Shown here piece by piece: positions 1-57,930 of a stretch of 64,000 bases of DNA. The notes beneath the pieces were generated by a model, which saw only the letters and a program-made list of their open reading frames with translations, had not been told where the DNA came from and searched no databases. Position 1 is the first letter of the stretch; every line of letters begins with the position of its first letter. A program made the translations under genes and the position numbers. The DNA is from Ginglymostoma cirratum (taxonomy: Eukaryota): NCBI GenBank assembly GCA_024137785.1, contig JAHRHZ010000059.1, forward strand, positions 2,396,952 through 2,460,951, written 5' to 3'.

Positions 1-858
1 GCCATCTGCAATCAGACCCCACCACCAAAGACATTTTTCCCTCCCCACCCTTATCTGCCTTCCGGAGGGACCACTCCCTCCACGACTCCCTTGTCCGCTC
101 CACACTCCCCTCCAGCCCCACCACACCCGGCACTTTTCCTTGTAACCGCAGGAAGTGCTACACCTGCCCCCACACCTCCTCCCTCACCCCAATCCCAGGC
201 CCCAAGAAGACTTTCCACATCAGGCAGAGGTTCACCTGCACATCTGCCAATGTGGTATACTGCGTCCGCTGTACCCGTTGTGGCTTCCTCTACATCGGGG
301 AAACCAAGCAGAGGCTTGGGGACCGCTTTGCAGAACACCTGCGCTCAGTTCGCAACAAACAACTGCACCTCCCAGTCGCGAACCATTTCAACTCCCCCTC
401 CCATTCCTCAGATGACATGTCCATCCTGGGCCTCCTGCANNNNNNNNNNNNNNNNNNNNNNNNNNNNNNNNNNNNNNNNNNNNNNNNNNNNNNNNNNNNN
501 NNNNNNNNNNNNNNNNNNNNNNNNNNNNNNNNNNNNNNNTCCCGCCCCCTTGACCTGTCCGTCCTCCCTGGACTGACCTATCTCCTGCCTACCCCCCTAC
601 CTACACTCACCTTTACTGGCTCCATCCCCGCCTCTTCGACTTGTCTGCCTCCTCTCCACCTATCCTCTCCTCTATCCATCCCTCCCCCTCTCTCCCTATT
701 TATTTCAGAACCCTCTTCCCCTCCCCCATTTCTGATGAAGGGTTTAGGCCCGAAACGTCAAGTTTTCCTGCTCCTATGATGCTGCTTGACCTGCTGTGTT
801 CATCCAGCCCCATGCTTTTTATCTTGGATTCTCCAGCATCTGCAGTACCTTTTATCTC
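1..858 (+). mobile_element. Neptune-type Penelope-like retroelement (family A), 3' part: GIY-YIG region, pyrimidine-rich 3' UTR and terminal repeat with tail
   Basis: Translates to VYCVRCTRCGFLYIGETKQRLGDRFAEH (GIY-YIG); near-identical by eye to 19514-20474; interrupted by N gap 440-539. Confidence 0.9.
732..759 (+). ncRNA. Minimal hammerhead-ribozyme-like motif in PLE terminus
   Basis: CTGATGA-A-GGGTTTAGGCCC-GAAA-CGTC: CUGANGA box, stem II hairpin, GAAA box, GUC triplet; stem I is weak. Confidence 0.6.
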
Positions 859-1324
859 TGGATGTTATCATTTCCTGGTCACAAAGGTGGTGTCATTGGG
901 AATTTAAGAATTTAGGGAGCTTAAGAACTCCAGTTCTGGTATGGATGACCATGTTTACTAAGGCAAAGAGGGAATGCTAAAGGTAGTTGAATAACTGATT
1001 AGACCACATTTAGAATATTTTGACTTTGGGCAATAGTGTGAAATGGGTGATCATCAGATCAGTCAACTTCTTTATATTATCATTGGAAGTCAAAACTATT
1101 TTCAGTTCAGGTGCTTTGCTTTGGGAAAGATGTCAAGGCCTGGGTGCAGATGAGAATCTGTCATTCCGAAATCATGAAGGGAGACTAGTGATGTTGGGAT
1201 ATTTTTTATTATGAAAGCAAGTAAGGGTTAAGAGTAGAACTAATTGGCCTATTCAGGATAATAAACAGTTTTGGTAAGGTTAATAAAGTAAAAATACTTT
1301 CATTAATCAGTGAATTTGTTTTCG

Positions 1325-2130
1325 TGACAGGAAGCCAGTGTCCAGCGAGGTTCCACAAGAATCTGTATAGAGGCTCTTGCTGTTTTTGGTTTATACAAAT
1401 GATTTAGACTTGAACAAGGGAGGGTTGGTTAGTAAGATCATGGATGATATAAAAAGTGTTGGGGTGATAATTAGTGACGAGGATAACCTTAGATCACAGA
1501 AGGATATAGATGAGCTGGTCAGATGGGCTGATCTGTAGCAAATGGAATTCAATCTAGATAAGTGTCAGGTGATGCACTTGGGCATGACAGACAAGGCAAG
1601 GAAATACACGATGAACAGAAGGACCCTGTGAAGTCCTGAAGATCAGAGGGATCCTGGTGTGTATGTCTACCTGTCTCTTTAGGTAGCAGGATAGGTGGAT
1701 AAAGTGGTTAAGAAGCCTTATGGTATACTTGCCTTTATTAGTCAAGCCATAAAGTTTAAGAGTGGGAATATTATGCAGGAACTGTATAAGATGTTGGTTA
1801 GGCCACAGCTAGAATATTGCGTACAGTTCTGGAAACCACATTATAGGAGGGATGTGATAGCACTGGAGAGGGTACAGAGGAGATTTACCAGGAAGTTACC
1901 TGGGCTGGAAAGGTTAAGTTATGAAGAGAGATTGGACAGACTGGGGATGCTTTCCTTGGAGCAGTGGAAACTGAGAGGATATACGATTGAGATGTATAAA
2001 ATCATGAAGGACGTTGATAAGGAAGACAGGAAGGAACATTTCCCCTTGCTGGGGAGTTTAATGAACAGAAGGCATAGACTTAAGCAAAAAGCAGTAAGTT
2101 TAGAGTGGATGTAAGGAAAAAAGTTTTTTC
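1325..2130 (+). mobile_element. CR1 LINE, RT C-terminal fragment
   Basis: LYKMLVRPQLEYCVQFWKPHYRRDVIALERVQRRFTR is typical CR1 ORF2 C-terminus. Confidence 0.9.
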
Positions 2131-2149
2131 ACTCAGATGTCTTTTTCTT

Positions 2150-2730
2150 TCTAGATGGAATGGGTTTGGAAGATGCTGTCTAAGGATCTTTGGTGAATTT
2201 CTGCAGTGCACCTTATAGATAGTACAGATTGCTGCTACTGAGTATCATTATGGAGTGACTGAATGCTCGGGGATGTGATGCCAATCAAGCGAGCTCTTTT
2301 GTATCGGATGGTGTCAAGCTTCTTGAGCATTTATTGGAGCTGCACTCAGCGATGCAAGTAGAGGCTGTTCCAGCACAGTTATTATTTATGTTTTGTAGAT
2401 GGTTGACAGGGGAGTTACTCACTGCAATACTCCTAGCCTCTGACCTGTTCTTGTAGCCTAATCTAGTTCAGTTTCTGGTCAATGGCAACACCGAGGATAT
2501 TGATAGTGGCAAATTCAGTGATGGTATCGCTTTTGAAATGTCAAGGTGCAGTGGTTAGATAGCCTTATTGGAGATGGTTATTGCTTGGCATTTATGTGGT
2601 GTGAATGTTACTTGTCCAGGTCTTGATGAATTTGGACATGGATTGCTTCAGTACCTGAGGAATTGCAAATGTTGCTGACCATTGTGCAATCATTGATGAA
2701 CGGCCCACTTCTAACCTTATGATGGAATGG
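2150..2730 (-). mobile_element. CR1-group LINE, second family, fragment
   Basis: Similar by eye to 5190-5560 and 56035-56460. Confidence 0.65.
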
Positions 2731-2869
2731 AGGTACTAATTTTTACTGGTATATACTAAATGGGCTGAATGGCCATTTTCCATATTATAGGCCTCAATGA
2801 CTCTATGACAAGTGTCAGACTATCCTTAAGAGAAAGGAGAGACAGGTTAGGAGAAGTTCATCTTTGGAA

Positions 2870-4925: not shown

Positions 4926-4934
4926 ACACATTTG

Positions 4935-7198: not shown

Positions 7199-8073
7199 TA
7201 AGGTTTTTGAGTAGTTTTGTAGCTCGGGTTGTGGATGTTATGGTTGATTGGCTCACTGAGCTGCTTCGTTGTTTCAACAGCAACCACCCTAACACTCACA
7301 AATGAAGTTGCATGAAAACTCTATTTAAACGGGCAGCAACACACTGCAGCAACACAGAACTACGTCAAAAAGAAGCGTACCTCCTCCAAGTATTCAAGGA
7401 TAACAGATACCAGCAAAATTGGGTCAAAAGATGCCTATTACACGAAAAAAACCAGGAACTGCACGCCCCGACACACTCATCACGCTACCTTACATCAGGA
7501 ACACATCTGAACTGACCACGAGACTCCTATGACTACTGGGCACCAGAGTAGCACACTAACCTACATCAACCACATGCCAACTGCTAACCCGAACCAAAGA
7601 CCCTCTACCCACTATGGACAGGACCAACATAATATACAAGATTCCCTGCAAAGACTGCAACAAACATTACATTGGACAGACAGGAAGAAAATTAGCCACA
7701 AGAGAACACGAACATCAAATAGCAACAAAAAGACATGACCAATACACACTCATCTCCATCCACATGGATAAGGAAAACCACCAGTTTGATTGGGACAACA
7801 CCGGGATCCTGGGACAGCCAAACACGGACAAGCACAGGAATTCCTTGAGGCCTGGGTCTCCACAAGGAAAGCCATCAATAAACACATAGAGCTAGACCCT
7901 ATATATACACTCCACTGTGAAGGAAAACCGGAAGTGAAGTAACCCAACTCAATGGACACCAGAGTTTAAATAACAGGTGGAAAATACAACAGCGCTTCAT
8001 TGGAGGCTGCACTCTTGCTTTTACCCAGCAGGGTAATGAAACGTCTGGGGAACAATGAGACAACCTACCACAA
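7199..8073 (+). mobile_element. Poseidon-type Penelope-like element, 5'-truncated, with inverted 5' terminal arm
   Basis: KTLFKRAATHCS (RT thumb) and NIIYKIPCKDCNKHYIGQTGR (GIY-YIG), frameshifted; 7199-7275 is an inverted terminus; TSD 7183-7198 / 8074-8089 (14/16). Confidence 0.85.
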
Positions 8074-8944
8074 CAAAGTACTTGGCTTTGTCCTGTCAGA
8101 TTTAAACATTTCCAGATTTACAAACAGAGGGCATTGCAGTGACATGATAGCATTATTGATCATACGTGTCTTGAATTTTTCACTCTGCTGGCAGGAAAAC
8201 CAGTAATAAAGAATGAATTGCATTGAGAACTTTGCATCACAACAAATTTAATACATGCCACAATACAAATGTATCTCCAGTGAACAAAACTTTGTTGTTA
8301 TAGTACCAAGTGTCTTGCCAGTCTGAAAACCGTAGCATAAGGAGTTAAGCCTGACTGTGTGATATGCTAATGAAACAGTGTACATCATTACTGAAAATGT
8401 CACAAGATCTTGCTTTCTCCTGCGGCTTTGTGACAAGATGAAGCCACAGTAAGACGTTTCTCAAATAAAGTTAATGTTTATCTTTCCTCAGTGGACTCTG
8501 GAAATACTCTTTAGAAGCACAATGAGACCAAGAATAACAGACAAAACTACTCATGTGATTAATAACTTGCCTTTCAGACATTTCCTTTTGAGATAATGAT
8601 TACAGCGCACAGTATAGCTGTATAAAACAAACTGCATGAGACAAATTGAATACATCAGATCTGAAGAAAAGCAACATATTTGTAAATGTACATTCATGCT
8701 CATTTAATGCTACAGTAGTGAGAGGGAAGAGAGATTATTTTGGACCATTCATTTGTGGAGCACAGGTCTGAATAGTTTTAAGTAAGATTTAGTTACTTTG
8801 TTCTAGCTAGCTTCACTTGTATTGTTATTTGTTCACCAACTTTTTACAGCTTTCTAATCTTTACACATGTTTCACAATATATTAAAGTTACTCTTCCCAT
8901 TTTCTACCAGGCTAATAGGATTGTCATCAAATTATTAATTATAA

Positions 8945-9361
8945 GAATTCCTACAGTGTGGAAACAAGCCCTTTGGCCCAACAGGTCCCACCAACCCTTG
9001 GAACATCCCACCCAGACCCATCCCTTTATAACCCACCTAAGCTACACATTCCTACAGTGTGGAAACAAGCCCTTTGGCCCAACAGGTCCCACCAACTCTT
9101 GGAACATCCCACCCAGACCCATCCCTTTATAACTCACCTAAGCTACACATTCCTGAACACTACAGACAATTTAACATGGCCAATCTGCCTAACCTGCACA
9201 TCTTTGGACTGTGGGAGGAAACTGGAGCACCCAGAGGAAAACCAGACAGACACAGGGAGAATGTGCAAACTCCACACAGATAGTCACCTGGGGATGGAAT
9301 TGAACCCAGGTCCCTGGTGCTGTGAGGCAGCAGTGCTAACCGCTGGAGCACTGTGCCACCC
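8945..9361 (-). mobile_element. HE1-type tRNA-derived V-SINE with 101-bp tandem duplication of its 3' part
   Basis: A/B-box head, V-domain (tgtgtggagtttgcacattctccc), CR1-type tail; repeat units 8947-9047 and 9048-9148. Confidence 0.88.
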
Positions 9362-11309: not shown

Positions 11310-11452
11310 AAACTTTAAAATATTGGAAATACTGAGCAGGTCAGGCAGCCTCTGTGAAAAGGAACAGGGTTAACTAATTCTGATGACAGGTCTTCAACCT
11401 GAAATGATTCCGTGTAATTCTTCCTAAAAATTCTGTCTGACTCCCTGAATAC
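11310..11452. mobile_element. Old PLE-terminus mini-element with hammerhead-like core
   Basis: CTGATGA-C-AGGT-CTTCA-ACCT-GAAA at 11380-11404; left arm resembles family B (gaaatactgagcaggtcaggcagc). Confidence 0.5.
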
Positions 11453-11731
11453 AGATTTGAAGATTAACCAAAATGAGGTAATGAGAGTCACATTTCAAAC
11501 TGATTGTAAATCCATGTCAATTGAGCAGATCTTACCTTGTCTCTGAAGCCCTTCAATGCTATCAAAGAATCAATGTAGGCATTTAACTAGGAGTTGTGGA
11601 AGATACAATTCCACAGGTACAGAACAGCTTCAGGTCTCCGCTTAAAGCAGTAATAGCTGGAAGTCAGAACTTTCCTTTATGCAATGGCCCCATTGTCAAA
11701 GAGATTCTTAACAAGCTAGGTGTTGACGCAG

Positions 11732-11893
11732 AGATAGTAGGAACTGGCGATGCAGGAGAATTTGAGATAACAAGGTGTAAAGCTGGATGAACACAGCAGG
11801 CCAAGCAGCATCAGGAGAGCAGGACATCGGCTTTCCTGCTCCTCTGATGCTGCGTGGCCTGCTGTGTTCATCCAGCTCTACACCTTGTTATCT
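11732..11893. mobile_element. Fold-back PLE-terminus mini-element, family A
   Basis: Inverted arms of the family A terminus; TSD taggtgttgacgcag 11717-11731 / taggtattgatgcag 11894-11908. Confidence 0.85.
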
Positions 11894-11949: not shown

Positions 11950-12984
11950 ACGTAATGATGAAGGCTAAGACCAACAAGTGCAGAGAGTCTGGACAGCAAG
12001 GGATATACAGGATTGGATTGGAAAGATAAAGACGTTTATGGTCGATACCAAAGGCTAAAACAGTGGACATTCTAGAGGAGTACAGAAAGTGCAGGGGTTT
12101 GCTTAAACAATGAATTAGGAGAGTGAAGAGGGAACATGAAAAATACTGGCAGGTCATATTCTCGATAATCCAAAAGCATTTTCTTTGAATATAAATAGCG
12201 TGCAAAGATATGGAGAAAAAGCAGAAGATTGGCACTGGGTAATGATGCTCTTTGAAGTGCCAGTGCAGGCATGATAAGTCAAATGGCCTCCTTCTGCACC
12301 TTAACAATTCTGTGATGAGTGACCAAAGTGGCAATCTGTATGTTGAGCCAAAAAACGTAGCTGGGGTTTTAAATGTGTGCTTAGCATTTATATCCACTGT
12401 AGAGAGGGTGTTGTAAGTATGGAAATCAGAGAGTGACACTTTGATATGTTTGAATAGATTAGCTTTGAGAGAGAGGAGGTTTTAGTGGACTTGAAAGTGG
12501 ACAAACCTCTAGGCCCAGCTGCTGTAGGAAGCAAGGATTACAGGTGCTCTGACAGCAATTTTCAATTCCTTTCTCTCAACAGCAGGGGTGCCAGAGGAGT
12601 ACAGGACAGATAATGTGCTACCATTATTCAAGAAGGTGGAAGGAATAAACCAGGAAACTACATGCCACTGCATCTAATATCAGTGGAAGGGAAAATATTG
12701 TTAAAAAAAATTTGAGTGGCAGAATGAATCTCCACTTGGAGGGGCAAAGACTGATCAAGAGTAGCCAGCATGGTTTTGTAATGTGGAGATCATGTCTTAT
12801 AAATTTGATTCAATTTTTGGAGGACTAGGTACGTAGTTGTGGATAGTATAGTTGATGCAGTCTATATTGGCTTCTGCAAGGCTTTTGACCAGATCCTATG
12901 TCATACAATGGTTACAATGGTTAAAATGCTAAGAGCCCATGGAATCAGGCTTTTTGGCAGATAGGCTTAGTGGTAAGAAGAAGA
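11950..12984 (+). mobile_element. CR1 LINE, upstream-RT part (left piece of an inversion-split element)
   Basis: Degenerate CR1 motifs PLFKK, PGNY.P..L.SV.GK, QHGF and KAFD. Confidence 0.8.
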
Positions 12985-13109
12985 AGTGCAACAATGCCCA
13001 CTCATTTCAATTGAATATTTATTCATTCATTGCCTACATGTCCTGCAGAGTTTGAAACATTGGAATGAATTGATAAAAACTATTTGTTAGGCACTTATTT
13101 TCCTCTAGT

Positions 13110-13305
13110 GGTGTTGGTTATCTCATTTGGTTGGATGATTAATATGTGGTGCAGAAAAAGTACCTAGGAATACAGGTTGGATCTTTGTATCAACTATATT
13201 TCACAGAGGCCTACCCACTTACCTTACCATATGCTTCCTCAAGCTAAACATAACCTGTTGCCTCTCCTTAATAGGAAGAAATGCTGTGATCCTTGTGGAC
13301 TATGA
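13110..13305 (+). mobile_element. Old tRNA-derived SINE, related to 44030-44227 and 49838-50030
   Basis: Degenerate head ggttatctcatttggttggatg and end ...ggactatg. Confidence 0.4.
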
Positions 13306-13524
13306 TTCCATTCCATACCATTTTCTCCCTAATCTGTAATTCATTTTCCTTCATTCTTATACATCATGAACATTAATTGAAACACTTGGCACGACTCTTC
13401 CATTCGCTAGGTGATATATTGTTAACTGTAACACACTGTTCTTATGGGAATTGACATTTTAATTTTTTTATTTGCATATCACATTTATTCATTTGATGAC
13501 TGACATGATATGTATCATCAAGTC

Positions 13525-14927
13525 ATAACTTTTTCTACAGGACAGAAAGAGGCCCTTTATTCCATTATATCCCTGTTGATCATCAAGCAATCCTATTTCC
13601 CAACTCTTGACCCATAGTCTTGTACGCTATGGTCAAACGTTCATCTAAATTGTTTTAAAATGTCTTGAGAGTTCCTGCCTCTACCACTCTTTTAGGCAGT
13701 GAGTTCCAAATACCTACAATTCTCTGGGTGAAAAGGTTTCACCTCAAATTCCCTCTAAACTTCCTGTTTTTTACCTTAAAACTGTGCCCCCTCTTTATTG
13801 ATCCATCTACTAAGGGGAACAAAATTCTTCCTATCTACTCTGTCTATTCCCCTCAGAACTTTGTACATTTCAATCAGTTCCCCATTCAGCCTTCTCTGCT
13901 TCAAGAAAAACAACCCCAGCCTATCTAGTCTCCTTTCATAGCTAAATCATTCCATCCCAGGCAACATCTTGGTGAATCTCGTCTGCATACTCTCTAATGC
14001 AATCATATCTTTCTGTCGTGTGGTGGCCAGAACTGCGCACACTATTCTAGCTGTGGCCTATCTAAGGATACATACAGCCCATCACAACCTTCTTGTTATT
14101 GTATTCAGTGACTTGACTAATAAAAGTTTTTCATATGCCTTCTTAATCACCTTATCTACCTGACCTGCTTCAAGAATCTGTAAATATGCATCACAAGGTT
14201 CCTCTGACCGTCTGAGCTTCCCAGGGTCCTACCATACATTATGTATTCCCATGTCTTCTTAGTCATCCAAAAATCCATCACCATACACTTTTCAGTTTGC
14301 TGTTGTTCAGCCCATCTGACTAGCCCTTCTATATCATCTTCTAGTCTAAGGCTTCTCCATTTACCATACCATCAATTTTCATGCCATCTGAGAACTTATT
14401 GATTATGCATATCTGAACCCTTAACATACACAACAAACAGCAAGGGCCCCAGCATCAAATCCTGTGATACAGCACTGGAAATAGGCTTCAGGTCACAAAA
14501 GCAACCTTTGACGATTCCCCTCTTCTCCTTACCACTAAGCCAATTTTAGGGTCCTATCTGCCAAAAAGCCTGATTCCATGGGCTCCTAGCATTTTAACCA
14601 TTGTATGACATAGGATCTGATCAAAAGCCTTGCAGAAGCCAATATAGACTGCATCAACTATACTATCCACAACTACGTACCTAGTCCTCCAAAAATTGAA
14701 TCAAATTTATAAGACATGATCTCCACATTACAAAACCATACTGGCTACTCTTGATCAGTCTTTGCCTCTCCAAGTGGAGATTCATTCTGCCACTCAAATC
14801 TTTTTTAACAATATTTTCCCTTCCACTGATATTAGATGCAGTGGCATGTAGTTTCCTGGTTTATTCCTTCTACCTTCTTGAATAATGATAGCACATTATC
14901 TGTCCTGTACTCCTCTGGCACCCCTGC
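13525..14927 (-). mobile_element. CR1 LINE RT to 3' tail (inverted right piece of the same element)
   Basis: Minus strand continues the element from the duplicated segment through LE.CAQFWP to the tail at ~13530. Confidence 0.8.
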
Positions 14928-15117
14928 AGTGGGCATTGCTGCATTTTGTGGCCTAAATTGGAATTTTATAGAAGTAGAATCTTCACTTCCATCAATTATA
15001 ATTATTTTTCATGTTGGTTTTATAAACCTGACTTTGAAAATGGATTCAATTATTGACCACTTGTAACAAAACATGTAGTCACTTTACCTTTCTATGCTTT
15101 CTCCATTGTAGGTTGGA

Positions 15118-15384
15118 ATGAGGTCCCGGAGCAGTGGAGAATCTCCGTCTCATGGACGCGCATCCAGGGATAACAACCATGAAGGTGAGGAAAGCACTTC
15201 TATGGGCAGTAAAAAGAAGAAGAAAACCCATCGTCAAAATGATGGAGAAAAGGTAATGGGTGTATCAGGTCCTGTAAAGAAACAACAGAAACCATTTGAA
15301 GAAAATGAGCGACAAAAGAAGTTACTGGAGCTCTCCAAAGATGACCTCCTGCGTCTGCTCAGCATAATGGAAGGAGAAATTGAG
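15118..15384 (+). CDS. FILIP1: Filamin A-interacting protein 1, first coding exon (partial CDS, 89 codons)
   Basis: MRSRSSGES...KKKKK...LELSKDDLLRLLSIMEGEIE matches the vertebrate FILIP1 N-terminus (MRSR..GES, poly-K, ELSKEDL..LLSIMEGELQ); polypyrimidine tract and AG at 15110-15111, exon starts 15112; phase-0 donor GAG|GTGAGT at 15385. Paralog FILIP1L is less likely. Confidence 0.88.
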
Positions 15385-16337
15385 GTGAGTTTCATGTAGC
15401 AATGTATTAACATAAACAAGTTTACTTTGTAGGCCACAAACTGCTGTCCAATTGAGAGCCAGAAGACTGGAGCAGATAGTGACATCCCGTTGAGTTGCTA
15501 ATCTTAACATTGCTCATACTTTAAATTCGGAGAGAACATTGCCAGCTGAACATGACCACACACTTTCTAACAGAAACCCACAAGTTCCCTTGGATAGGAT
15601 GAGTGTTATGGGTTGGATGTCTAGAAGAGCAGAGGAAGGAAACGATTTAGGAAGAAAGTAAAGGACAGACTTGGCTTTAGAAACAAATTACAATCAACTC
15701 AAAGTCCCATTAAAATTATGAGACATGTAATACTGTACTTAAAGTAAGCCTTGGCCAGAAGAACAGATGACACTCAGCAGTCCCTGACAGATTCATAGTT
15801 ACGAAAGTGGTTTTATTGCAATACAATATGAAAGAGATTGATTGCAAAAGCACTCAGAAAGTGTTGGCAGATTCTTAATGAAAGTATTAAAGACAACAAA
15901 TTTCCATCATCTGCAGGATCTAAGATCCAAGGAAACCAATCAACAGTCCAAGAATTTTTTGTCAGTACTAAGCCTTATACGATGATAAAGAAGAAATATG
16001 CACTTATGCAGCAACTTACACATCCTCAGGCCATGCAATATGCTTGACAGTTATTTTTGAGGTGTGGTCTTTGTTTTCAGTTGACAAGCGTGACAGTTTG
16101 TACACAGTCAGGTTCCATTACCATGACAGTGATGAATTACTACTGCACTTATTTGGATGTGATTGGTTAAGTGATATTCATAGTCTGGAAAAGGCTCTGC
16201 TCATCTTCAAATGCCATGATGAGGTCTTTTATATTTGTCTGAATTGGCTGGTGGCAACTTGGTTTCACAGCTCAAAAAACAGTGCAGCACACCCAGCAGT
16301 ATACGAATAATAATCAAAAATCATGTGCTCGTGTACT

Positions 16338-16468
16338 GAGATAGTTGGAACTGCTGATGCTGGAGAATCTGAGATAACAAGGTGTAGAGCTGGATGAACA
16401 CAGCAGGCCAAGCAGCATCAGAGGAGCAGGAAAGCTGACGTTTCGGGTCTAGACCATTCTTTAGAAAA
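16338..16468 (-). mobile_element. Single-arm PLE-terminus mini-element, family A
   Basis: Reverse complement of the family A terminus with tail; hammerhead box mutated; no clear TSD. Confidence 0.8.
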
Positions 16469-17749
16469 TGCAGTTTTCGTTCACAAACCCTGAAGTAGTT
16501 TGTGAATCCGTATTGCTTCCAGACTGGAACTTTATTACTCAATTTTTCATTGAATTCCATTGAATCTATATTGTGACGTGTCCATCAGTTTTATACATGA
16601 CAATATTAGCCTTGCATTGACTGGTATAAAGCCTTGTTAACAGTACAGTGACTCTGTATATTTCAGTAGTAACTAGCACATACACATTACTCTGTTCTAC
16701 TCTCATAATGATCTTTTGAATGGAAATACTTCATGAAAATGAGTTCAAACTTTTGAATACTTTTGGATTGTTTTCTCAGCAGAAAGAACAGAACAGGGTT
16801 GCACATGAAGCCCAGTGGCAAGCGGTAGTCCATTAGGTATGAGCAGTTACGCATTACAAAAAATAGTGCAGACAGGATGCAGGGGACATTTAGTTGTGTG
16901 GGGTGGAGGCACTACCATTTTCTCATCTCTGCTTAAATCCATTGTGGCTGTCAAGTGGGCAATTAATGCCCAGCCTAGCATCTGATTTCCAAGCCAGCAG
17001 CTGGGGAAACTATCAGGCAATGAGTTCAAAAGCAAATCCCTTCAGGTTTATTAGATCAATTTTGGGTCAGGATATGACTATTTGAGGGATGCAGAATCTG
17101 GAAAAGGGAGGGGCATTGAGCATTATCCCTCTCCTTTTCTCCCTTTCAAATGAGCACCCCCTCTTCAGCCAGCAACCTTCATCCTATTCTCACTCAGTTA
17201 TGGCCTGGCTCCTTTGTCAAACCAGTCCTTTGGTTAGTGTAAACAGCTGCCATTCTTGGTGGTGTAGAAAGCAATGGAAAACTACCACTGGGGTAGAATT
17301 TCTTCCGCTCGAGTTCTAAACCTCAGCAAAGCCCCAATGCTGACCAGTTAAGCACCAGCTGGACTTTTAATTCCAACGGGTTTTCCCAACAGAGGCACCA
17401 TGGGGGAGGCTCCTATAGTTCTCTGGTTGGTGGGCAAGACTCCTCATTGTAATCATTAACCAATCCATGATAAATTTGACTGTGGTTACTTGTACCCACT
17501 TCGCACTACGGTATTCAGCTCCTTCCCTGCATCCTTTTTTAAATTTGCTCATAGGATTTTGGACATCATTGGCTGAGCCAGTGTATCCCCAATTGCCCAG
17601 ATAGAGCAACTGAGATTCAACCACATTGCTATGGCACCAAAATCTCATGGCACTGATCATACACACCCCACATCCACCAACATTGGCACCTGACATGTGC
17701 TAACCTCTAAGAACCCTCATGGCACATCTCCAATCTACTTAAAGGCAAT

Positions 17750-20560
17750 AAAAACTGAAAGAACTGCAGATGCTGTAAATCAGTATCAAAAACAGAAATT
17801 GCTGGAAAATCTCAGCAGGTCTGGCAGTATCTGTGGAGAAAAATCAGATTTAATGTTTTGGCTTCAGTGACCTTTGTTCAGAACTGATGGTTGCTAGGAA
17901 AAAATTGTCTTTGTCTTTTTCTATGGAAGATAGTGTGGGGGTTGGTGATAAGGAGTAAACTATAGGCGAAGATAGAGCACAAAGAGAGAGAACAGTTGGA
18001 TAGGCATAGGAGTCGATAATGATCAGCCGAGAGAATGAATAGCTACTAATGGGAACTATTAGTGGTTAACAATGATATCAGAGATAACCTCAACACAAGC
18101 CCTCCTCCTGGACACCACCCCAAGGCCTCCTACCTTCCCTCGATCTCTTCATCTCCAACTGCTGTCGAGACATCAATTGCCTCAACCTCTCTACCCCTCT
18201 CAAACACTCCAACCTCTCCACCGCAGAACGTGCAGCCCTCCGCTCCAATCCCAACCTCACCAGAAAACCCGCGGACAAGGGAGGGGCAGTCGTAGTATGG
18301 CGCACTGACTTCTAAATCGCTGAGGCCAGGCGCCAACTCTCTGACACCTCCTCCTACCGCCCCCTGGATCATGACCCCACCCCCGAGCACCAAACCATCA
18401 TCTCCCAAACCATCCACAACCTTATCACCTCAGGTGACCTCCCACCCACCGCCTCCAACCTCATCGTTCCCCAACCCCGCACTGCCCGCTTCTATCTCCT
18501 TCCCAAAATCCACAAACCTGAATGCCCTGGTGGACTCATTGTCTCCGCCTGCTCCTGCCCCACCGAACTCATCTCCACCTACCTAGACTCCATTTTCACC
18601 TCCTTGGTCCAGGAACTCCCTACCTACGTCCGTGACACCACCCACGCCCTCCACCTCCTCCAGAACTTCCAATTCCCCGGTCTCCAACACCTCATTTTTA
18701 CTACGGACGTCCAGTCCCTATACACCTGTATTCCCCATGCAGATGGCCTAAAGGCCCTCCGCTTCTTCCTGTCCCGCAGAACTGACCAATCCCCCACCAC
18801 CGACACCCTCATCCGTTTAGCCAAACTCATCCTCACCCTCAACAACTTCTCTTTCAATTCCTCCCACTTCCTACAGACAAAGGGGGTGGCCATGGGTACC
18901 CGCATGGGCCCAAGCTATGCCTGCCTCTTTGTAGGTTAAGTGGAACAATCCCTCTTCCATACCTACACTGGCCCTAAACCACACCTCTTCCTCTGTTACA
19001 TTGATGACTGTCTCGGCGCCGTCTCGTGCTCCCACGTGGAGCTCGAACAGTTCATCCACTTCACCAACACCTTCCACCCCAACATGAAGTTCACCTGGAC
19101 CATCTCCAACACTTCTCTCTTCTTCCTGGACCTCTCTGTCTCCATCTCGGGCAACCGCCTAGAAACCGATGTCCATTTCAAGCCCACTGACTCCCACAGC
19201 TACCTGGAATACACCTCCTCCCACCCACCTTTCTGCAAAAATGCCATCCCCAATTCCCAATTCCTTCGCCTCTGCCGCATCTTCTCCCAGGATGAGACAT
19301 TCTACTCCCGTACATCTCAGATGTCCTCATTCTTCAAGGACCGCAACATCCCCCCCACAGTGGTCGAGAACGCCTTCGACCGTGTCTCCCGCATTTCCCG
19401 TAACTCATCCCTCACACCCCGTCCCCGCAATAATAACCAAAAAAGAATCCCCCTCATCCTCACGTACCACCCCACCAACCTCCGGATCCAACGCATCATT
19501 CTCCAACACTTCTGCCATCTGCAATCTGACCCCACCACCAAAGGCATTTTTCCCTCCCCACCCTTATCTGCTTTCCAGAGGGACCACTCCCTCCGCGACT
19601 CCCTTGTCCGCTCCACACTCCCCTCCAGCCCCACCACACCCTCCACTTTTCCCTGCAACCGCAGGAAGTGCTATACCTGCCCCCATACCTCCTCCCTCAC
19701 CCCAATCCCAGGCCCCAAGAAGACTTTCCACATCAGGCAGATGTTCACCTGCACATCTGCCAATGTGGTATACTGCATCCGCTGTACCCGTTGTGGCTTC
19801 CTCTACATCGGGGAAACCAAGCGGAGGCTTGGGGACCGCTTTGCAGAACACCTGCGCTCAGTTCGCAACAAACAACTGCACCTCCCAGTCGCGAACCATT
19901 TCAACTCCCCCTCCCATTCCTCAGATGACATGTCCATCCTTGGCCTCCTGCAATGCCACTGTGATGCCACCCGAAGGCTGCAGGAACAGCAAATCATATT
20001 CAGCCTGGGAACCCTGCAGCCCAATGGTATCAATGTGGATTTCACAAGCTTCAAAATCACCCCTCCCCTAACCGCATCCCAAAACCAGCCCAGCTCGTCC
20101 CCGCCTCCCTAACCTGTCCTTCCTCTCACCTATCCCCTCCTCCCACCTCAAGCCCCACCCCCATCTCCTATCTACTATCCTCATCCCGCCCCCTTACCTG
20201 TCCATCCTCCCTGGACTGACCTATCTCCTCCCCACCCCCCCACTTACACTCACCTTTTCTGGCTCCATCCCCGCCTCTTTGACTTGTCTGCCTCCTCTCC
20301 ACCTATCCTCTCCTCTATCCATCCTCTATCCGCCTCCCCCTCTCTCCCTATTTATTTCAGAACCCTCTTCCCCTCCCCCATTTCTGATGAAGGGTCTAGG
20401 CCCAAAACGTCAAGCTTTCCTGCTCCTATGATGCTGCTTGGCCTGCTGTGTTCATCCAGCCCCACACCTTGTTATAGTGGTTAACAATGAGTTGTGTGTA
20501 ATAGCAGACCATGTAATAACAAGACCTGGTGTTTGGGGGCACAGTAAGTGAAGGGCAGAC
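17750..20560 (-). mobile_element. Older PLE family B terminus and 3' UTR (17750-18075 plus 20475-20560), split by the family A insertion
   Basis: gaaagaactgcagatgctgtaaatcag...gctggaaaatctcagcaggtctggcag matches family B arms; purine-rich UTR; target duplicated on both sides of the insert. Confidence 0.65.
18076..20474 (+). mobile_element. Neptune-type Penelope-like retrotransposon, 5'-truncated, RT plus GIY-YIG, two premature stops
   Basis: One frame: KPADKGGAVVVW, FYLLPKIHK, TDVQSLYT, KGVAMGTRMGPSYA, YIDD, Cys linker CNRRKCYTC, GIY-YIG VYCIRC..LYIGET; TAA at 18313-18315 and 18937-18939; ORF ends 20112; perfect 16-bp TSD 18060-18075 / 20475-20490. Confidence 0.93.
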
Positions 20561-20661
20561 TCCAAAGTCAGACCAGGGACATGGAAATAGTTAGTTGGCC
20601 AACTTGGGGCATTCAGAGTCAGGATATTCTCTAGGAGCCAAATTTCAGACAGCCTATTGCC

Positions 20662-20795
20662 TGAGAGATAATAGGTAGTGCAGATGCTGTAGAATCCGAG
20701 ATAACAAGGTGTGGAGCTGGATGAACACAGCAAGCCAAGCAGCATCATGGGAGCAGGAAAGCTTGACGTTTCGGGCCTCGACCCTTCATCAGAAA
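20662..20795 (-). mobile_element. Single-arm family A mini-element with intact hammerhead-like core (20765-20792)
   Basis: Minus strand CTGATGA-A-GGGTCGAGGCCC-GAAA-CGTC followed by family A terminus and tail. Confidence 0.8.
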
Positions 20796-22312: not shown

Positions 22313-22634
22313 GGGGCGGAACAGTGGCTCAATGGTTAGCACTGCTGCCTCACAGCGTCAGGGACCTGTGTTCAATTCCAGCCTCGGGCGACTGTCTGTG
22401 TGGAGTTTGCACATTCTCCCCGTGTCTGCGTGGGTTTCCTCTGGGTGCTCCTGTTTCCTCCCACAGTCCAAAGATGTGCAGGCTAGGTGGATTGGCCATG
22501 CTAAATTGCACGTAGTGTCCAGGGAGGTGTAAATTAGGTGGGTTATGGGGAATGGGTCTGGATGAGACACTCTGAGGGTTGGTGCAGACTGGTTTGGCCA
22601 AAGGACCTGTTTCCACACTGTAGGGGTGCTATGA
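22313..22634 (+). mobile_element. HE1-type V-SINE, full length
   Basis: A box (tggctcaatggttagc), B box (gttcaattcc), V domain, CR1-type tail. Confidence 0.9.
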
Positions 22635-24198: not shown

Positions 24199-24202
<4 letters not shown>

Positions 24203-39660: not shown

Positions 39661-40116
39661 AGAGAGGACATGATAGATGCTGAAGAGCTATGAAAGCAGC
39701 AGGAGTCTTCTGAGGGTGAAGGCAAAGAAATTTAGGATGGAGAACATCACCATCAGCACAATAGAGCAGTACAGCACCAGGCAGAACAAACCAGACAGGG
39801 ACTAATTGACACCCAGTTTCAATAGATAGTGCAGTGATCATTCATTGACTGTAGATTTGTTGTTTCTTGAATGGCAAGTAGTCTCTGTCAGTTCCCAGAT
39901 GTAAATGCAGTTCTTTGTGCTAGAGTAGGGGGAAGAGTAGTAAACCCTTAGGTAGGCTTCTAAAATGAGAAGGTGCTAAGGACATGTAGCCTATACACCT
40001 TGATTCTTACAGCTGCAGTTACAATGACTGTTGAGTGCTGCATTAATAATACGTCGCTACAGGTTAATGTACACTCGACAAAATGTGTGAACGAAAAAAA
40101 GACAGGATCAATTTTG

Positions 40117-40299
40117 TAGAGCTGGATGAACAAAGCAGGCCAAGCAGCATCAGGGGAGCAGGAAAGGTGATGTTTCAGGCCTAGACCCTTCCCGAAACAT
40201 CAGCTTTCCTGCTCCTCTGATGCTGCTTGGCCTGCTGTGTTCATCCAGCTCTATACCTTGTTATCTCAGATTCTCCAGCATCTGCAGTTCCTACTATCT
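40117..40299. mobile_element. Fold-back mini-element, family A
   Basis: Inverted arms joined inside the hammerhead region; perfect 14-bp TSD caggatcaattttg 40103-40116 / 40300-40313. Confidence 0.9.
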
Positions 40300-41099
40300 C
40301 AGGATCAATTTTGCAGTTTTAAAACAGATACTGGACAACAAAGAAATGTCCAATTTAAAATGGGTGGATAGCAGTAATTAGCTATCTGACTGGTTTACAA
40401 AAAAGGAGCAAGCTCTAAGAAACTGTTGGACATTCTGGAGAAAGGGTGCTGCAAAATTAATGTGCAGAGAAAAAACAGAAATATAATATTTTGTCCGTAT
40501 GAATGGTTTGTTTTGTTTGTTTATTATTTTTATTATGATGTTGATTTGTTGAAAATGAAAAAATGGAATCTGATATGGTATGTAGGGATATCTGAGATCT
40601 AATAGAATGATGCTTAGGTGATGGACTTAGTAACTAAGGGCTAATTTAGTATAAAGTGGTTGTGTAAAAATGGGGAGCAAGAAATGGGAGTGGTGAGGGG
40701 GGTGCGGGTGCTGGGTGGTTTATGCAATGTGCTTTACCAAAATAAGGCTACCACTAAAAGTCTGCATGTGGATTCTGTTCTAACTACCATGCATCTTCTG
40801 GAATATGACAAAGCTGAGCACCTTTTAAAAGTTTGATTTTCAGAGGTATTTGGATAAGCTTGCACATACATTATGGAAAGTAAATATGCAGGTGTAGCAA
40901 GCAGTTAAGAAGGCAAATGGAGTGTTAGCCATCATTGCAAAGTGGTTGGAGTGTTAGCATGAAAGGTGAAATTTGGCTTAGTAGCACACATTTTCCTTGC
41001 ATAGTCTCTCAACAGCATTTTGTGTCTACAATCCTACAAATTCCTCATCCTCAACTACTTGTTCAATTTGCTGTAAAAATTATTAAAGAAATTAGCTTC

Positions 41100-43612: not shown

Positions 43613-43791
43613 CAACAAAATCAGAACATGCTGGAGAAACTCAGCAGATCTGGCAGCGTCTATGAGGAGGGAAACAGAGTTAACGATTTGAGCCCTGTGG
43701 CTCTTCTTCAGAATATTGGTCTCAAAACATTAGTTCTGTTTTCTCTCTGTTTTTGTTTCAAATTTCTAGCATCCACAGTTCTTTGTTTCAT
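43613..43791. mobile_element. Older fold-back mini-element, family B-like
   Basis: Minus core CTGAAGA-A-GAGCC-ACAG-GGCTC at 43690-43711; probable TSD tttcctgttaac 43601-43612 / tttgctgttaac 43792-43803. Confidence 0.7.
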
Positions 43792-44227: not shown

Positions 44228-45906
44228 TTTCCTTTGCTCACCAACATTGAGAGCCTGCCCACCTCCCTCAATTGAATTGGCAACTCAATCCATACCAATT
44301 ATAGGTATGAAAATCCCAATGAGTGCCTGCTCTCCCGCCTCTATCCCCTGCCCCACTACAGATTCAGGATCTGGAAACAGTCTTGGTTTGTGTTTCCCAC
44401 TACTATAAGGATACTCCAATTGTTGAGATAATAAACAAATCGTTGAGCTATCATCACAAGTTTTCTCATGGTTTATTTGGCAAGGCACTGCCTAAGAAGA
44501 TATTGTACAATATAGCTCTGCCTAGTCATCGATCTGTATTGAGTTTGCTAATCTCAATCAAAGCAGCAGTTCCAGAGCTACGACTGGTCTCAGGCAGGAC
44601 TTGCACTTCCGAAAGTTATTGAAAGACTCCTATTGGAAAAATTAAGTGTACATGTACTTTGAGTAACAATGGATTTCCTCGACTATGATTGCCTCTGTAT
44701 GGTGCAAGAGCCTGCTGAAACCATTGCCAACCTACATGAGTGAGGATTGGCAATTGATATTCCTATTGGAACATGCTTTTGTATGAAAACATCTTTCAAG
44801 AGGTGACAGGAATCAGAGTGAGGGGGAGAGAAAAGAGACAGCAAATAGGAAAGTGTTTGCTTATTTTCTCAATGCAAAGACATGATGGAAACCAACTGCT
44901 AACCCCACCAATTCTATCTCCAACATTAATCCTGAGCATTTCTGGATTTCTGTGCATGCAATATATCTGAAAATTTCCACAATTGTTGAGAAGAAGCAGA
45001 AAATGCCAACAGATAATTTGATAATACAGTGCTCATATCATGAAAATTAGCCTGTCACATTTTTGGCCAACTTGCTGACAAAGCAAGCAGTACAATTGAC
45101 TTAGTGTAAGCAGAGTTTATTGTGATTCCTCACCAGACAGGTTTACTCGCTACTCCTTCCAGAATACCACACTGCTGGGGTTAATGTTCAGAGACTTGCA
45201 TCATCTTATGGTTTGGTTCAAGTCCAACATGCAAATAATTAATTACATTAGCTGCTTAACTTCGCTGTTCTGTGAAAAGTGACATCATCCCATGGAGTGT
45301 TTTGGCAACAGAGCAGAAAAAACTTTCATGGGCAGGAAATTTATTAAAAAAAGACAAATGTCTCTGAATGCTTAACTAGCCCATGTGGAACGCACAAAAC
45401 CATTTATAGTCAAGCAGAGATTAAATCATATTAGAAAGTTGTGAAGAAGATGTCACTTGGAGGGAGTATTTATCAAGGTGACAGATAACTGCACTAGAGA
45501 CTGGAATAAATGTCTCCACTTCCCAATTAATAACCATCTCATAGATTACCAGGTCAGGAATGGGGCAACTCAAATATAATACAAAGCTGCCCTACTTTTA
45601 TAGCAATCTCAGCCCTAATATTATTAGATCAATTAGACTATTATGATGTTTTATTTTTTCTTAGTTTCTGTCCTCATTGGCTATCAGAGTGCAGAGAACA
45701 AATGCCCATTCCAAATTGGCTGATGCTCAGATTTGTGACTTGGATGAAATAACAACTGGAAACAGAGTGTATTCTGCACCTGACCAATCTGTAATGGACT
45801 GGCTTCATCCACAGACTGAGTCAGCCTAATTGAAATATTCAGGATGTGCGCTATTATGAGGCACCCATTAAATGGGCTGGTAGCACAATTGTTTAAAAAT
45901 GATTTC

Positions 45907-46017
45907 AGAGATAGTAGGAACTGCAGATGCTGGAGAATATGAGATAACAAGGTGTAGAGCTGGATGAACACAGCAGGCCAAGCAGCATCAGAGGAGCTGG
46001 AAAGCTGACGTTTCGGG
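45907..46017 (-). mobile_element. Family A PLE terminus running into an assembly gap
   Basis: Same arm as 16338-16468; N gap 46018-46417 starts at stem II. Confidence 0.85.
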
Positions 46018-48100: not shown

Positions 48101-48458
48101 CTTGTCCACATCATTTAGCATTGTGGCTTGAATTCTCTGCCGGTCGCTTTCCGTTTTTCTGATTCTGTCTTTTGTTATTGTCCTTGTTTCTCTCTCTTCT
48201 GTGTCCTTGTATAGAGGTGAAAAGTACATCGGTGTAATACAAGATAATGTTAGATCCTCTATTTTTTGCTCAAGGACACAGGAAACCCACAATAGCTGAA
48301 AGAGAAATATGATAGCTGACAGACCCCCAAATGTCAGCCCTCTCACCACTTCTGTGGAAGAATCTCTCCAAATCTTCAGAGATGATGTCAGTGATATAAC
48401 ATAGGAAGTGGACTAGGAGTTCAATTGCGACTGTGGGCTTAAAAGAAATTCTAGCCTT

Positions 48459-48743
48459 AAAAACCAAAAGAACTGCGAATGTTGTAAATCAGGAACAAAA
48501 ACAAAAATTGCAGGAAAAGCTCAGCTTCCTCAGTTCTGAGGAAGGGTCACCGGACCAGAAGTGTTAACTTTGATTTTTTTCTTCACAGATGCCACCAGAC
48601 CTGCTGAGCTTTTCCTGCAAATTCTGTCTTTTCTCCTGATTTACAGGATCCACAGTTGTTTTTGGTTTTTAGGGTTTTCAAAGGCCGCAGTTGCAATTGA
48701 GCTCCTAGTCAGTTCTGAGGAAGGTCATCGGATTCGAAAGGTT
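48459..48743. mobile_element. Complex family B mini-element with two hammerhead-like cores and captured flank
   Basis: Cores at 48536-48565 and 48715-48743; probable TSD 48446-48458 / 48744-48756 (11/13). Confidence 0.72.
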
Positions 48744-49179
48744 AAATTCTAATCTTGGCCAATTGTGCTGAAACAAGAGGAGGGAGGTCTTGTAGATGGA
48801 TCAGAATGTATCAGAGCCAGATTTTCAGGGGTTTGATTTTAAAAGAAAGATGTTTATAGAGCAACAAATGTTTCAGCAAGGACTAGACACTGTAGAAGCC
48901 AACAGGCTGTAGAAATGGCATTTCTAAATCATACATGGAAGGTTTTGTACACTGCAACTTTAAACCATCTTCACCTGGAGTTGAATTGCCATAACAGAAT
49001 CTCCAAGATTATTTTGTGTTATTCCATAGACATTTAGAGGTCTGGAGTTTGATGTTTGAAAGAACTTGATATCTGGTTATAGACAACATAAACAAGAGCT
49101 AAGTGAACTTATTTTTGCCCTTCAGATTAGTGGCTCACTTGATAAATCTATCGCAGTAGTTCCCATTCTAGATGTCATT

Positions 49180-54525: not shown

Positions 54526-54835
54526 CGGCACGGTGGCTCAGTGGTTAGCACTGCAGCCTCACAGCGCCAGGGACCTGGGTTTGATTCCAGCCTCAGGTGG
54601 CTGTCTGTGTAGAGTTTGCACATTCTCCCCGTGTCTGCGTGGGGTTTCCTCCGGGTGCTCAGGTTTCCTCCCACTGTCCAAAGATGTGCAGGCTAGGTGG
54701 ATTGGCCATGCTAAATTGCCCATAGTGTTCAGGGGTGTGTGGGTTATAGGGGGATGGGTCAGGTGGGATGGTGCAAGGGTCAGTGTGGACTTGTTGGGCC
54801 GAAGGGCCTGTTTCCACACTGTAGGGATTCTAATG
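54526..54835 (+). mobile_element. HE1-type V-SINE, full length, young
   Basis: cggcacggtggctcagtggttagc head, V domain, tail gggccgaagggcctgtttccacactgtagggattct. Confidence 0.92.
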
Positions 54836-55759
54836 AAAAAAATTCCTGTATCCCTGTACTTAAGTACAGGTGACAATAAAATCTAATTCTAATTCTAACT
54901 GTTTGAACCAGATGAGTCACACCAGTGACTAGATGAGTTTCACTGTTTGTCCTACTCAGTAAAAGCACATTGGTCTGCTTATTTGATGTGAAATGTATTT
55001 CTTTTAGTATTATTCTTTTAGTTCTTTTAAGTGTTAAAATATACTCTATATCTAAAGGTGAAGGTAATTGGCAGTGAAATTAATTAATCTCCAACATATT
55101 TGTTGGCCTTTATAATTTTTACTTCACTAAAAGTTAAATCTGCAAGGCATCAGCCTTTATTAGCTTCTTTAAAAATGCTGCATGTGGTAGTTCTAATTGA
55201 ATTACTTTGCCATGAAGTCATATTTCACTGCCCTCTGGAGAAACCAAAATCACAAAAATACTTTCTCAGGTTGAAAATGAAGATATGCACAGGACTGTTC
55301 TGTGCTAAGATTTGTCAATATATTACTTCAGAGAAGTGAGGAAATATTGCAAACATTTTACAAACTGGAATTACACCACTTACATTAACTTTTAGATTAT
55401 GCCTGCCAAAGAAACAACACTGTCACCGAGCAAAGCACTCCTATAATCATTTGTCTTATGAACCCTAATGTTGAAAGGTTAATACCACAGCAAGTTGTAT
55501 TTATACAATTTTAATTTAAGTATATCTACATGCTCTTCACAGAAAGAATAAAGTCAACATGGAACATAGGAGGAAGTGAATGAGAAAGAGATCTTAACAT
55601 TAGACTGGTAATGTTAATGTTAGAATAGTTTACAAAATGTAACATTAGTTCCATATTACTAAATAACACACAATGCAAAATTTGAATTGAAAATTCCTCT
55701 TTCTGTGGTCTTACTTTCATTTTCCATTTCTCTTAATTTAAATTCTCCCTTTGTGCTTA

Positions 55760-57930
55760 TTTTTATTCACTCATGGGATGTGGCTGTTATTGGCTGGGCC
55801 AACATTTATTGGTCATCCGTAGCTGCCCTTGAGAAGATGATAGTGAACTGCCTTCTGAACTACTGCAGTCCACGAGCTGTAGGTGGATGCACAATGCCAT
55901 ACAGGAGTGAATTCTAGGATTTTAATACAGTTACATTGAAGAAACAGCAGTAAATATCCAAATCAGGTTAGTGAGTAGCTTGAAGGGGAACTTGCAGGTG
56001 GTGAAGTTCTCGTTCATCTCCTGCCCTTATCCTTCTAGATGAAAATGGTCGTGGGTTTGGAAGGTGCTGTCTCAGGAACCATGGGAATTCCCGCAATGAA
56101 GTTTGTAGATGGTACACACTGCTCCTACTATACATCAATAGCAGAATGGGTGAAAGTTTGTGGGAGTGGTGCCAAACAAGTGGGTTACTTTTCCCTAAAT
56201 AGTGTCAGGTTTCTTTTGCATTTTTAGAGCTGCACTTATCCAGGCAGGTGGAGAGTATTCCTTCATATTCCTGACTTGTGCCGTCTAGATGGTAGATAGG
56301 CTTTGGAGAACGAGGAGGTAAGCTACTCATTTCAGAATTCCTAGCCTCTGACCTGCATTTTTAGCCACTATCTTGTGTGGTGAGTCCAGTTCAGATTCTG
56401 GTCAATGATAATGGATGTTGAGAGTGAGGGAATTCAGTTATGGGAATGACATGGAATCTCAAGGGGCAATCCCTAATCCCTTAGAGTAATCCCCACTTGC
56501 TCAGAGGATACTTAAGAATCAACGACATTGCTTTGTGTATGGAGAGATAGTGGGAACTGCTGATGCTGAAGAATCTGAGATAACAAGGTGTAGAGTTGGA
56601 TGAACACAGCAGGCCAAGCAGCATCAGGGGAGCAGGAAAGCTGACGTTTCGGGTCAAGACCCTTCTTCAGANNNNNNNNNNNNNNNNNNNNNNNNNNNNN
56701 NNNNNNNNNNNNNNNNNNNNNNNNNNNNNNNNNNNNNNNNNNNNNNNNNNNNNNNNNNNNNNNNNNNNNNNNNNNNNNNNNNNNNNNNNNNNNNNNNNNN
56801 NNNNNNNNNNNNNNNNNNNNNNNNNNNNNNNNNNNNNNNNNNNNNNNNNNNNNNNNNNNNNNNNNNNNNNNNNNNNNNNNNNNNNNNNNNNNNNNNNNNN
56901 NNNNNNNNNNNNNNNNNNNNNNNNNNNNNNNNNNNNNNNNNNNNNNNNNNNNNNNNNNNNNNNNNNNNNNNNNNNNNNNNNNNNNNNNNNNNNNNNNNNN
57001 NNNNNNNNNNNNNNNNNNNNNNNNNNNNNNNNNNNNNNNNNNNNNNNNNNNNNNNNNNNNNNNNNNNNNNNTGGATGAACACAGCAGGCCAAGCAGCATC
57101 AGGGGAGCAGGAAAGCTGACGTTTCGGGTCAAGACCCTTCTTCAGATAAGGGTCACTTTTCTGAAGAAGGGTCCAGACCCGAAACGTCAGCTTTCCTGCT
57201 CCTCTGATGCTGCTTGGCCTGCTGTGTCCATCCAGCTCTACACCTTGTTATCTCTGTGTATGGAGTTGTGTGTAGGTTAGACTAGGTAAGGATGGTAATT
57301 TCCTTCCCCTGGGACATTAGTTTCATTGTCAAAAATCGACAATAGTTTCATGGTTGCCATTAGGCTAGCTTTAAATTCCTGATTGTTATCAAGTTCAGAT
57401 TTCACCAACTGGCATCGTCGGTTTCATGCCTTCAGAACAATATCTTGGGTCTCTAGATTGCTAGTTCAGCAAGTTCACCTCTGCCACTATTTATCTTGAA
57501 GGAGTTGGTAATTGCCTGATACTTGGGTGGCATGGATGTTACTTGCCGCTTGTCAGCTCAAGACTGGATATTATCCAAATCTTGTTGCATTTGAACATGG
57601 ACTGCTTCAGTGTTTGAGAAGTCATAAATGGTTCTGAATATTGTGTAATCATCGATGAAAACCGCTACCTCTAATCTTATGATGGAGGGAAGATCAACGA
57701 TGAAGCAGCTGAAGATGGTTGGACCGAGGACACTACTCTGAGGATCTCCTGCAAAGACAAATGACCTTCAACAACCACAACCATCTTCCCATGTGCAAAG
57801 TATGACTCCAACCAGCAGAGAAATTTTCCCCCAGTTATCATTGGCTCCAATTTTGTGAAAGGTCCTTGATGTCATATTTGATCAAATTCAGCCTAGACAT
57901 CCATAGCAGTCATTCTTACCGCCCTCCCCG
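55760..57930 (-). mobile_element. Second-family LINE (55760-56465 and 57500-57930) interrupted by SINE and PLE mini-element
   Basis: Tail at 55760-55830; body similar to 2150-2730 and 4935-5570. Confidence 0.7.
56545..57254. mobile_element. Fold-back family A mini-element spanning a gap, intact cores on both strands
   Basis: Cores 56643-56670(-), 57118-57145(-), 57161-57188(+); TSD tgtgtatggag 56534-56544 / 57255-57265. Confidence 0.85.

Follow-up and report, generated by a model that had tools for sequence, protein, structure and literature searches.

The minimal hammerhead ribozymes of Penelope-like elements (PLEs) were defined in a study that also reported low activity of their dimers (PMC4209133). 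They have a CUGANGA and GAAA..UH core, one extra base before the G10.1-C11.1 pair, a short stem I and a palindrome at positions 15.2-16.2, and they occur mostly as single dispersed copies, with close pairs on opposite strands. The same features recur in the DNA analysed here, a 64-kb window from the shark Ginglymostoma cirratum (assembly GCA_024137785.1, contig JAHRHZ010000059.1, positions 2,396,952 to 2,460,951; genome 4.36 Gb) that includes the first coding exon of FILIP1. We consider it highly probable that these motifs are minimal type I hammerheads at PLE terminal repeats, predicted to cut only as dimers, and that the window copies are likely inert passengers, not FILIP1 regulators. This reading is supported by the hammerhead anatomy of the motifs, by PLE coding sequence that precedes them in three of the five families (named A to E), and by target duplications, two tail lengths, head-to-head pairs and covariation between families. 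The class is already published; the shark families are new members of it, and the copies in the window are mostly dead.

Insertions of endonuclease-bearing (EN+) PLEs of the Neptune and Penelope/Poseidon clades resemble the shark copies in their 5' truncation, inverted pseudo-long terminal repeat (pLTR), one-sided tail and target duplications (PMC8557442, PMC3846280). The shark elements likewise encode reverse transcriptase (RT) followed by a C-terminal GIY-YIG domain, and have pLTRs, an optional tail of 30-40 bp and inverted copies, but, unlike in other EN+ PLEs, an extreme proportion of them are stubs that end at the hammerhead. The cysteine linker of Neptune elements (CX2-5CxxC) is present in shark family A (CX4CX2C between RT and EN) and absent in family C, a clade call made by motif, not by tree. 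In Anolis carolinensis Poseidon (Frangieh 2024, PMC11167929), RT starts at two internal sites 30-40 nt apart, comparable with the two classes of 3' ends in the shark; as in the shark, both strands are extended, and uncut RNA is the main template in vitro. The open reading frame (ORF) of Anolis Poseidon begins at stem II, whereas the first in-frame ATG of shark family A lies ~170 nt after the start (locus L157), and no ends at the cut site were seen in Anolis, compared with a weak genomic excess in the shark.

Non-LTR retrozymes (LTR, long terminal repeat) share with the shark copies a type I hammerhead and a PLE origin (PMC7229834; bioRxiv 10.64898/2026.07.22.740005), and have been reported in the one chondrichthyan tested (bioRxiv 10.64898/2026.07.22.740005). 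However, retrozymes form head-to-tail tandem arrays, whereas the shark copies are single or head-to-head. Stem II has 4-5 bp in shark families A, B, D and E compared with 7-8 in Schistosoma, and the 140,433 pattern matches in the shark compare with ~9,000 in Xenopus and ~4,000 in coelacanth, counts obtained with differing descriptors. No shark term appears in two supplement files of PMC4209133, and a literature search that excluded Repbase and subscription journals found no paper on shark PLE hammerheads or on truncation at the cut site.

Within the window, the core pattern CTGANGA-N12-24-GAAACGTY has 6 matches, compared with 0 in 100 shuffles. All five cores that a sequence-only reading of this DNA had called intact are exact matches and carry the CUGANGA, GAAA and UH core, four of them being distinct; the sites it called degenerate do not carry it. 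Three intact cores and the decayed ones are as follows.

732-759, plus strand: intact minimal hammerhead core of family A1, with predicted cut 759/760, stem II 740-743/748-751, stem I 728-731/760-763 and ACGU at 755-758
20765-20792, minus strand: intact core in a short family A copy, antisense to FILIP1
57161-57188, plus strand: intact core in the plus arm of a head-to-head insertion, stem I of 2 contiguous bp
20384-20411, plus strand: dead core, G12 to A, at the end of a family A element
35535-35562, plus strand: dead core, G12 to A
16437-16464, minus strand: decayed core, G5 to A, absent from the sequence-only reading
31559-31588, plus strand: family B core, C3 lost through truncation
48536-48565: dead family B core, A15.1 changed
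48715-48743: dead family B core, stem III palindrome lost
17852-17881, minus strand: decayed family B core
43682-43711, minus strand: dead family B-like core, G12 and A15.1 changed, GAGCC/GGCTC stem
11380-11410, plus strand: very decayed B/D-type core behind an inverted arm, stem III palindrome lost
8012-8045, plus strand: dead family C core, CTCTTGC replacing CTGATGA

The other two intact cores, 56643-56670 and 57118-57145 on the minus strand, are probably one arm duplicated across a 400-N run. Because the stretches that contain them are identical over 75/75 nt on either side of the run, because both lie within one insertion bounded by a single 11-bp target duplication, and because 13/25 N runs in the examined loci repeat a 25-mer across the run, this arm has likely been counted twice. 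Every core previously listed as degenerate has lost a core feature, and these sites mostly reflect decay, not variants. The sixth pattern match, absent from the earlier list (8453-8491, minus strand), has an A/T-rich imperfect stem II and fits no family.

Genome-wide, the exact core pattern has 140,433 matches, some of them gap duplicates, compared with 901 for a reversed control. Searches with longer-stem and non-CG patterns add families C and D (9,653 compared with 1,544 control matches) and E (4,071 compared with 94). All catalytic core letters are common to the five families. Stem II is closed by G10.1-C11.1 with one extra base preceding; it consists of 4 bp and a 4-nt loop in family A, and of 5 bp in family B only. 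Stem I is an open helix of 3-4 bp in all five families, covarying between them and interrupted or weakest in subfamily A2; it had been attributed to family B, which does have one, but not alone. The stem III palindrome, previously described as ACGT, is indeed ACGU in A-D but AGCU in E (about two thirds of the first 100 matches listed, counted by eye). This swap in family E is the change that a dimer stem III predicts.

To measure covariation, we used a consensus test anchored on the core with no structure fitted (stem II pairs 2-4, stem I pairs 1-3, and 15.2-16.2). Across the five family consensuses, 35/35 anchored pairs form; 1/120 re-dealings of the 3' halves reaches 35, and fully mismatched 3' halves reach at most 19. 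A MAFFT alignment of 36 copies from A-D (family E was misregistered and left out) has 91.7% of cells paired, with 7/9 pairs changing on both sides; its score was reached by 0/500 shuffles, and slid controls were 13-41% paired. By the number of pairs or of types, the alignment did not stand out (104 and 184 of 500 shuffles), and relatedness inflates the score. The proposal that stem II covaries across families is thus upheld, and stems I and III covary as well. However, the hairpin variants cited for it do not carry it, since there are 0 two-sided stem changes within any single family and the examples in the window mostly reflect decay. Variation among copies within a family is decay. Both GAGCC/GGCTC, which occurs once among all loci examined, and AGGT/ACCT, in which the conserved first pair is altered, come from dead cores and are weak evidence of covariation.

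Some cores have potential competing folds. In family C leaders (L041:1929(+), L046), a TCATCAG or TCATCGG stretch ~8 nt ahead of the core could sequester CUGAUGA, to which it is complementary; there is no covariation with N7. In family A2 cores, the 12 nt of stem II and its loop can form a perfect palindrome (L014:1500(+)), and bases after the cut are complementary to CUGA, which in folding models favours an inactive monomer.

RT and GIY-YIG coding sequence lies directly upstream of cores in families A, B and C, where the cores are located in PLE terminal repeats. An ORF remnant lies upstream of 2/26 family B cores and 13/21 family C cores. This association, with the covariation between families, bears out the earlier assignment of the motifs to PLE minimal type I hammerheads. 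The copies in the window are listed below.

1-858, plus strand: 3' part of a family A PLE, with GIY-YIG region, C-rich 3' untranslated region (UTR), hammerhead and long tail
18076-20474, plus strand: 5'-truncated family A PLE with RT, CX4CX2C linker and GIY-YIG; one stop at 18937-18939
20664-20796, minus strand: short family A copy, from the front edge of the hammerhead to the long tail
56544-57254, both arms: one head-to-head insertion with an 11-bp target duplication; predicted long hairpin
35447-35663: head-to-head family A pair; predicted -100 kcal/mol hairpin
40115-40300: head-to-head family A pair, two truncated cores
11729-11893: coreless head-to-head family A pair
16335-16467, minus strand: short family A copy
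45906-46017, minus strand: family A tail entering a 400-N run
31477-31692: head-to-head family B pair
48458-48748: family B cluster with two dead cores
43614-43713, minus strand: family B-like copy
17748-18075, minus strand: old family B copy with upstream repeat
35874-36010: family B fragments in opposite orientations
7201-8055: family C (Poseidon-like) insertion, with GIY-YIG remnant 7560-7889 (plus strand) and inverted tail 7201-7269 (minus strand)

The element at 1-858 has its inverted left arm and a 14-bp target duplication ~5.2 kb before the window. The element at 18076-20474 sits inside a family B copy and is flanked by a 16-bp target duplication (18060-18075 / 20475-20490); 61 relatives were found, most with an RT domain and many with GIY-YIG. 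More distant is the remnant at 7560-7889 (31% identity over 68 aa), which ends in a family C core. In the window, copies occur singly or as head-to-head pairs, and no tandem series of hammerhead-bearing units in head-to-tail order was found. Insertions are nested at 17748-20796, where an older family B copy harbours, or is adjoined by, a family A element and a stub. At the 5' junction there, seven bases (18081-18087) match the tail end in reverse complement, as a minimal remnant of second-strand priming.

The ends of copies point to a defined start of the RNA. We number positions from C3 as 0, so that the predicted cut lies between +27 and +28, and use an unselected sample of 737 kb (274 kb around and including the window, plus the 48/80 random 10-kb stretches that were not wholly N). 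In this sample, 3' ends fall into two classes, at ~+90-97 and ~+127-133, and 5' ends lie at -8 to 0 in 37/116 cases for family A, 33/79 for B, 10/16 for D, 4/9 for C and 2/10 for E. Among 134 family A copies with a tail there are 22 close head-to-head pairs, and 55/131 family A cores keep the upstream repeat. Stubs carry the subfamily variants of long copies. At locus L157 the whole ORF start is kept, and the copy begins at the same hammerhead edge, adjoined by an inverted stub. A TATA-like box lies 29-31 nt before an initiator-like A at -4. In family A it is found at -35 in 54/62 copies that keep upstream sequence compared with 3/102 truncated copies, and in family B at -33 in 6/9 compared with 0/48. 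The example in the window is:

697-705, plus strand: TATA-like box TATTTATTT, predicted promoter, 31 nt before the initiator-like A at 728

From this arrangement, PLE RNA likely starts at -4, the front edge of the hammerhead. A putative TATA box and initiator have been described in the pLTR of rotifer PLEs (PMC3846280), whereas Drosophila Penelope has an internal promoter instead (PMC2377424). We also considered a 3' splice site at the hammerhead edge, which reads AG in B and D, but truncated copies share no upstream exon. A cap-derived extra G was not seen at 5' junctions, with G at -5 in 17% of family A. One head-to-head junction (L251, L252, L254) is common to two loci 660 kb apart.

A smaller excess of starts is seen at the cut site. 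Start-position patterns, which require three non-consensus bases before a given start and cover subfamily A1 only, gave 9,612 matches at -3, 640 at +28 (the first base after the predicted cut) and, at three control positions, 249 (+21), 96 (+26) and 230 (+31). Of 30 loci of the +28 set inspected by eye, 7 were intact cores with small indels and 23 were truncations; among the truncations, one locus was counted twice and its junction recurs in a third. Adjusted for indels, the +28 count is ~490 (369-576), or 2.3, 5.1 and 1.9 times the three controls, which are themselves uncorrected for indels. Starts at the front edge are ~20 times as frequent as those at the cut site, so the usual template was uncut RNA. 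Ahead of two copies that start at the cut site (L259, L269) lies sequence of the element's own 5' UTR or ORF start in the same orientation, which suggests template jumps. We tentatively raise the possibility that the genome is a fossil map of PLE RNA 5' ends, in which the large peak would mark the TATA/initiator start, with the hammerhead as capped leader, and the smaller peak at GUC/A would mark RNAs already cut by the ribozyme in the germ line. If so, it would be evidence of in vivo PLE hammerhead cleavage, with the cap removed from a few percent of templates.

RNA reads came from an unstranded poly(A) run of another individual, in which reads derive from many copies; 48,974 of 12.9 million read records fall on 545-900. 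A second run gave 32 reads and was uninformative. Reads show A>G at 33 places, with 44 A in 545-860. At 8 upstream sites A>G reaches 15-25%, compared with 0/180 letters in unselected genomic copies, and at 4 core adenosines 6-9%, compared with 0/231 genomic letters. This pattern likely reflects A-to-I editing of double-stranded RNA, which is known for lizard Penelope (PMC5625713).

Taken as a cycle, transcription would begin at the initiator-like A, four bases before CUGA and ~30 nt behind the TATA-like box in the upstream repeat; the RNA would then have the hammerhead as its first 32-36 nt. The PLE protein would nick DNA and begin reverse transcription at either of two tail positions (~+93 or ~+129). 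Stubs of 97-133 bp that end at the RNA 5' end would result when priming falls in the 5' tail, long copies when it falls in the 3' tail, and head-to-head pairs when both strands are primed. Most templates would be uncut. Selection on master elements would have maintained the ribozyme fold, and since the fold was kept, the ribozyme is probably active at some stage, likely aided by protein and by a partner hammerhead. Once inserted, copies would decay, the inverted ones forming double-stranded RNA that is likely A-to-I edited.

Several observations weigh against parts of this reading. Rfam covariance models gave no hammerhead match in the window up to E 5, only microRNA-like hairpin hits from inverted pairs. 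In isolation, family A cores are predicted to misfold, at -9.3 kcal/mol compared with -3.4 kcal/mol for the hammerhead, and only -1.7 kcal/mol is gained from the ACGU duplex, the double hammerhead being beyond the cofolding model. The five families are only partly independent, because A, B and D have tail sequence in common, and the permutation test cannot do better than 1 in 120. No linked ORF was found for families D and E, the one hit upstream of the cores of each coming from an adjacent family A copy. In family C the strict TATA pattern is about as frequent in copies with upstream sequence as in those that lost it (5/18 compared with 5/17), and D and E rest on 4 copies each. No pile-up of read ends was seen anywhere in the poly(A) run, although a fragmented library would hide such ends.

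The front-edge pile-up could instead reflect a joining or nicking preference (an endonuclease acting at ATTT, or joining of cDNA to AT-rich targets through the T run), with the cut-site excess arising from the same type of bias through AA microhomology or RT pausing at stem I. We regard this as doubtful. In its favour, the Anolis PLE endonuclease prefers 5'-ATT-3' (PMC11167929), and the junction of many truncated family A copies carries additional T. Of the copies in the unselected sample, only 2/116 in family A and 2/79 in family B start within 2 nt of the cut, and 7/51 listed starts fall at +28 to +30 compared with 4.5 expected, by eye; both sets are too small to show a 1% feature. The cut-site excess rests on one family and three control positions, and sequence bias could give it. 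However, B and D use the same edge, where it reads AGTT or AGCT; the TATA-like box lies 29-31 nt upstream in A, B and D; and the AAA start (+21) and the T-rich start (+31) have about half the +28 count. It is also improbable that the main template is a circular RNA of unit length, cut and ligated by the hammerhead (the model of PMC4209133), or that the stubs are an independent retrozyme or family of short interspersed nuclear elements (SINEs). Intact cores with downstream tails are expected from a circle too, and some elements keep the upstream repeat, but a circle has no end at -4, where copy ends pile up. Short window copies are not tandem arrays, and the subfamily variants of long copies are shared by the stubs.

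Quite improbable, in our view, is retention of the motif as a protein-binding or promoter element that no longer cuts. Hammerhead mutants of Anolis had no effect on in vitro insertion, and no RNA-seq ends mapped to the cut there (PMC11167929); Naiad PLEs thrive without a hammerhead (PMC8557442). Against this, the catalytic letters are common to five families while the stems covary, stem III palindrome included, and cleavage by the Anolis motif was seen when protein was present, including C3/G8 rescue (PMC11167929). The proposal that intronic plus-strand copies cut FILIP1 pre-mRNA and tune its splicing or level we consider very improbable. The host gene annotation is as follows.

15118-15387, plus strand: first coding exon of FILIP1, acceptor at 15110-15111

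The downstream exon identifies the host gene as FILIP1 (98% to Stegostoma, 94% to Chiloscyllium). With the first coding exon at 15118-15387 and the next exon beginning ~65 nt beyond the window end, 15388-64000 is therefore FILIP1 intron. Bases before 15111 would be in the pre-mRNA only given an upstream non-coding exon outside the window, and the acceptor suggests one. The sequence-only reading named the host gene correctly, but a likely action of the plus-strand copies on its pre-mRNA is not supported. The core at 57161-57188 is the only intact plus-strand core within the proven intron, and the one at 732 may sit in an upstream intron. However, stem I of the former is down to 2 contiguous bp, and folding predicts that this core would be sequestered by complete pairing with its inverted arm (-102.4 kcal/mol, z -18.5). 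The remaining plus-strand cores in the intron are dead, and the proven intron has no intact same-strand partner core. With one exact core per 31 kb genome-wide, several cores in 64 kb are expected anyway. On these predictions a FILIP1 role of the window copies is unlikely. A second FILIP1-family gene (G000:C61:5950582-6071595) also has a family A inverted pair (L005) beside an exon.

The cellular job of PLE hammerheads is treated as an open question in the literature (PMC8557442), and no cut ends were seen in Anolis RNA (PMC11167929). The shark offers >100,000 cores in five families as natural compensatory variants, including the stem III swap, and its position-resolved counts single out one precise position each for the start and the cut, both testable.

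The window also contains features unrelated to the hammerheads. LINE-like (long interspersed nuclear element) ORF remnants and a dispersed short repeat family lie at 1695-2114, 29300-29812, 8944-9361, 22314-22546, 54526-54752 and 60272-60452. An inverted repeat at 12579-14930 has arms of 341 bp that are 98% complementary and 1,670 bp apart.

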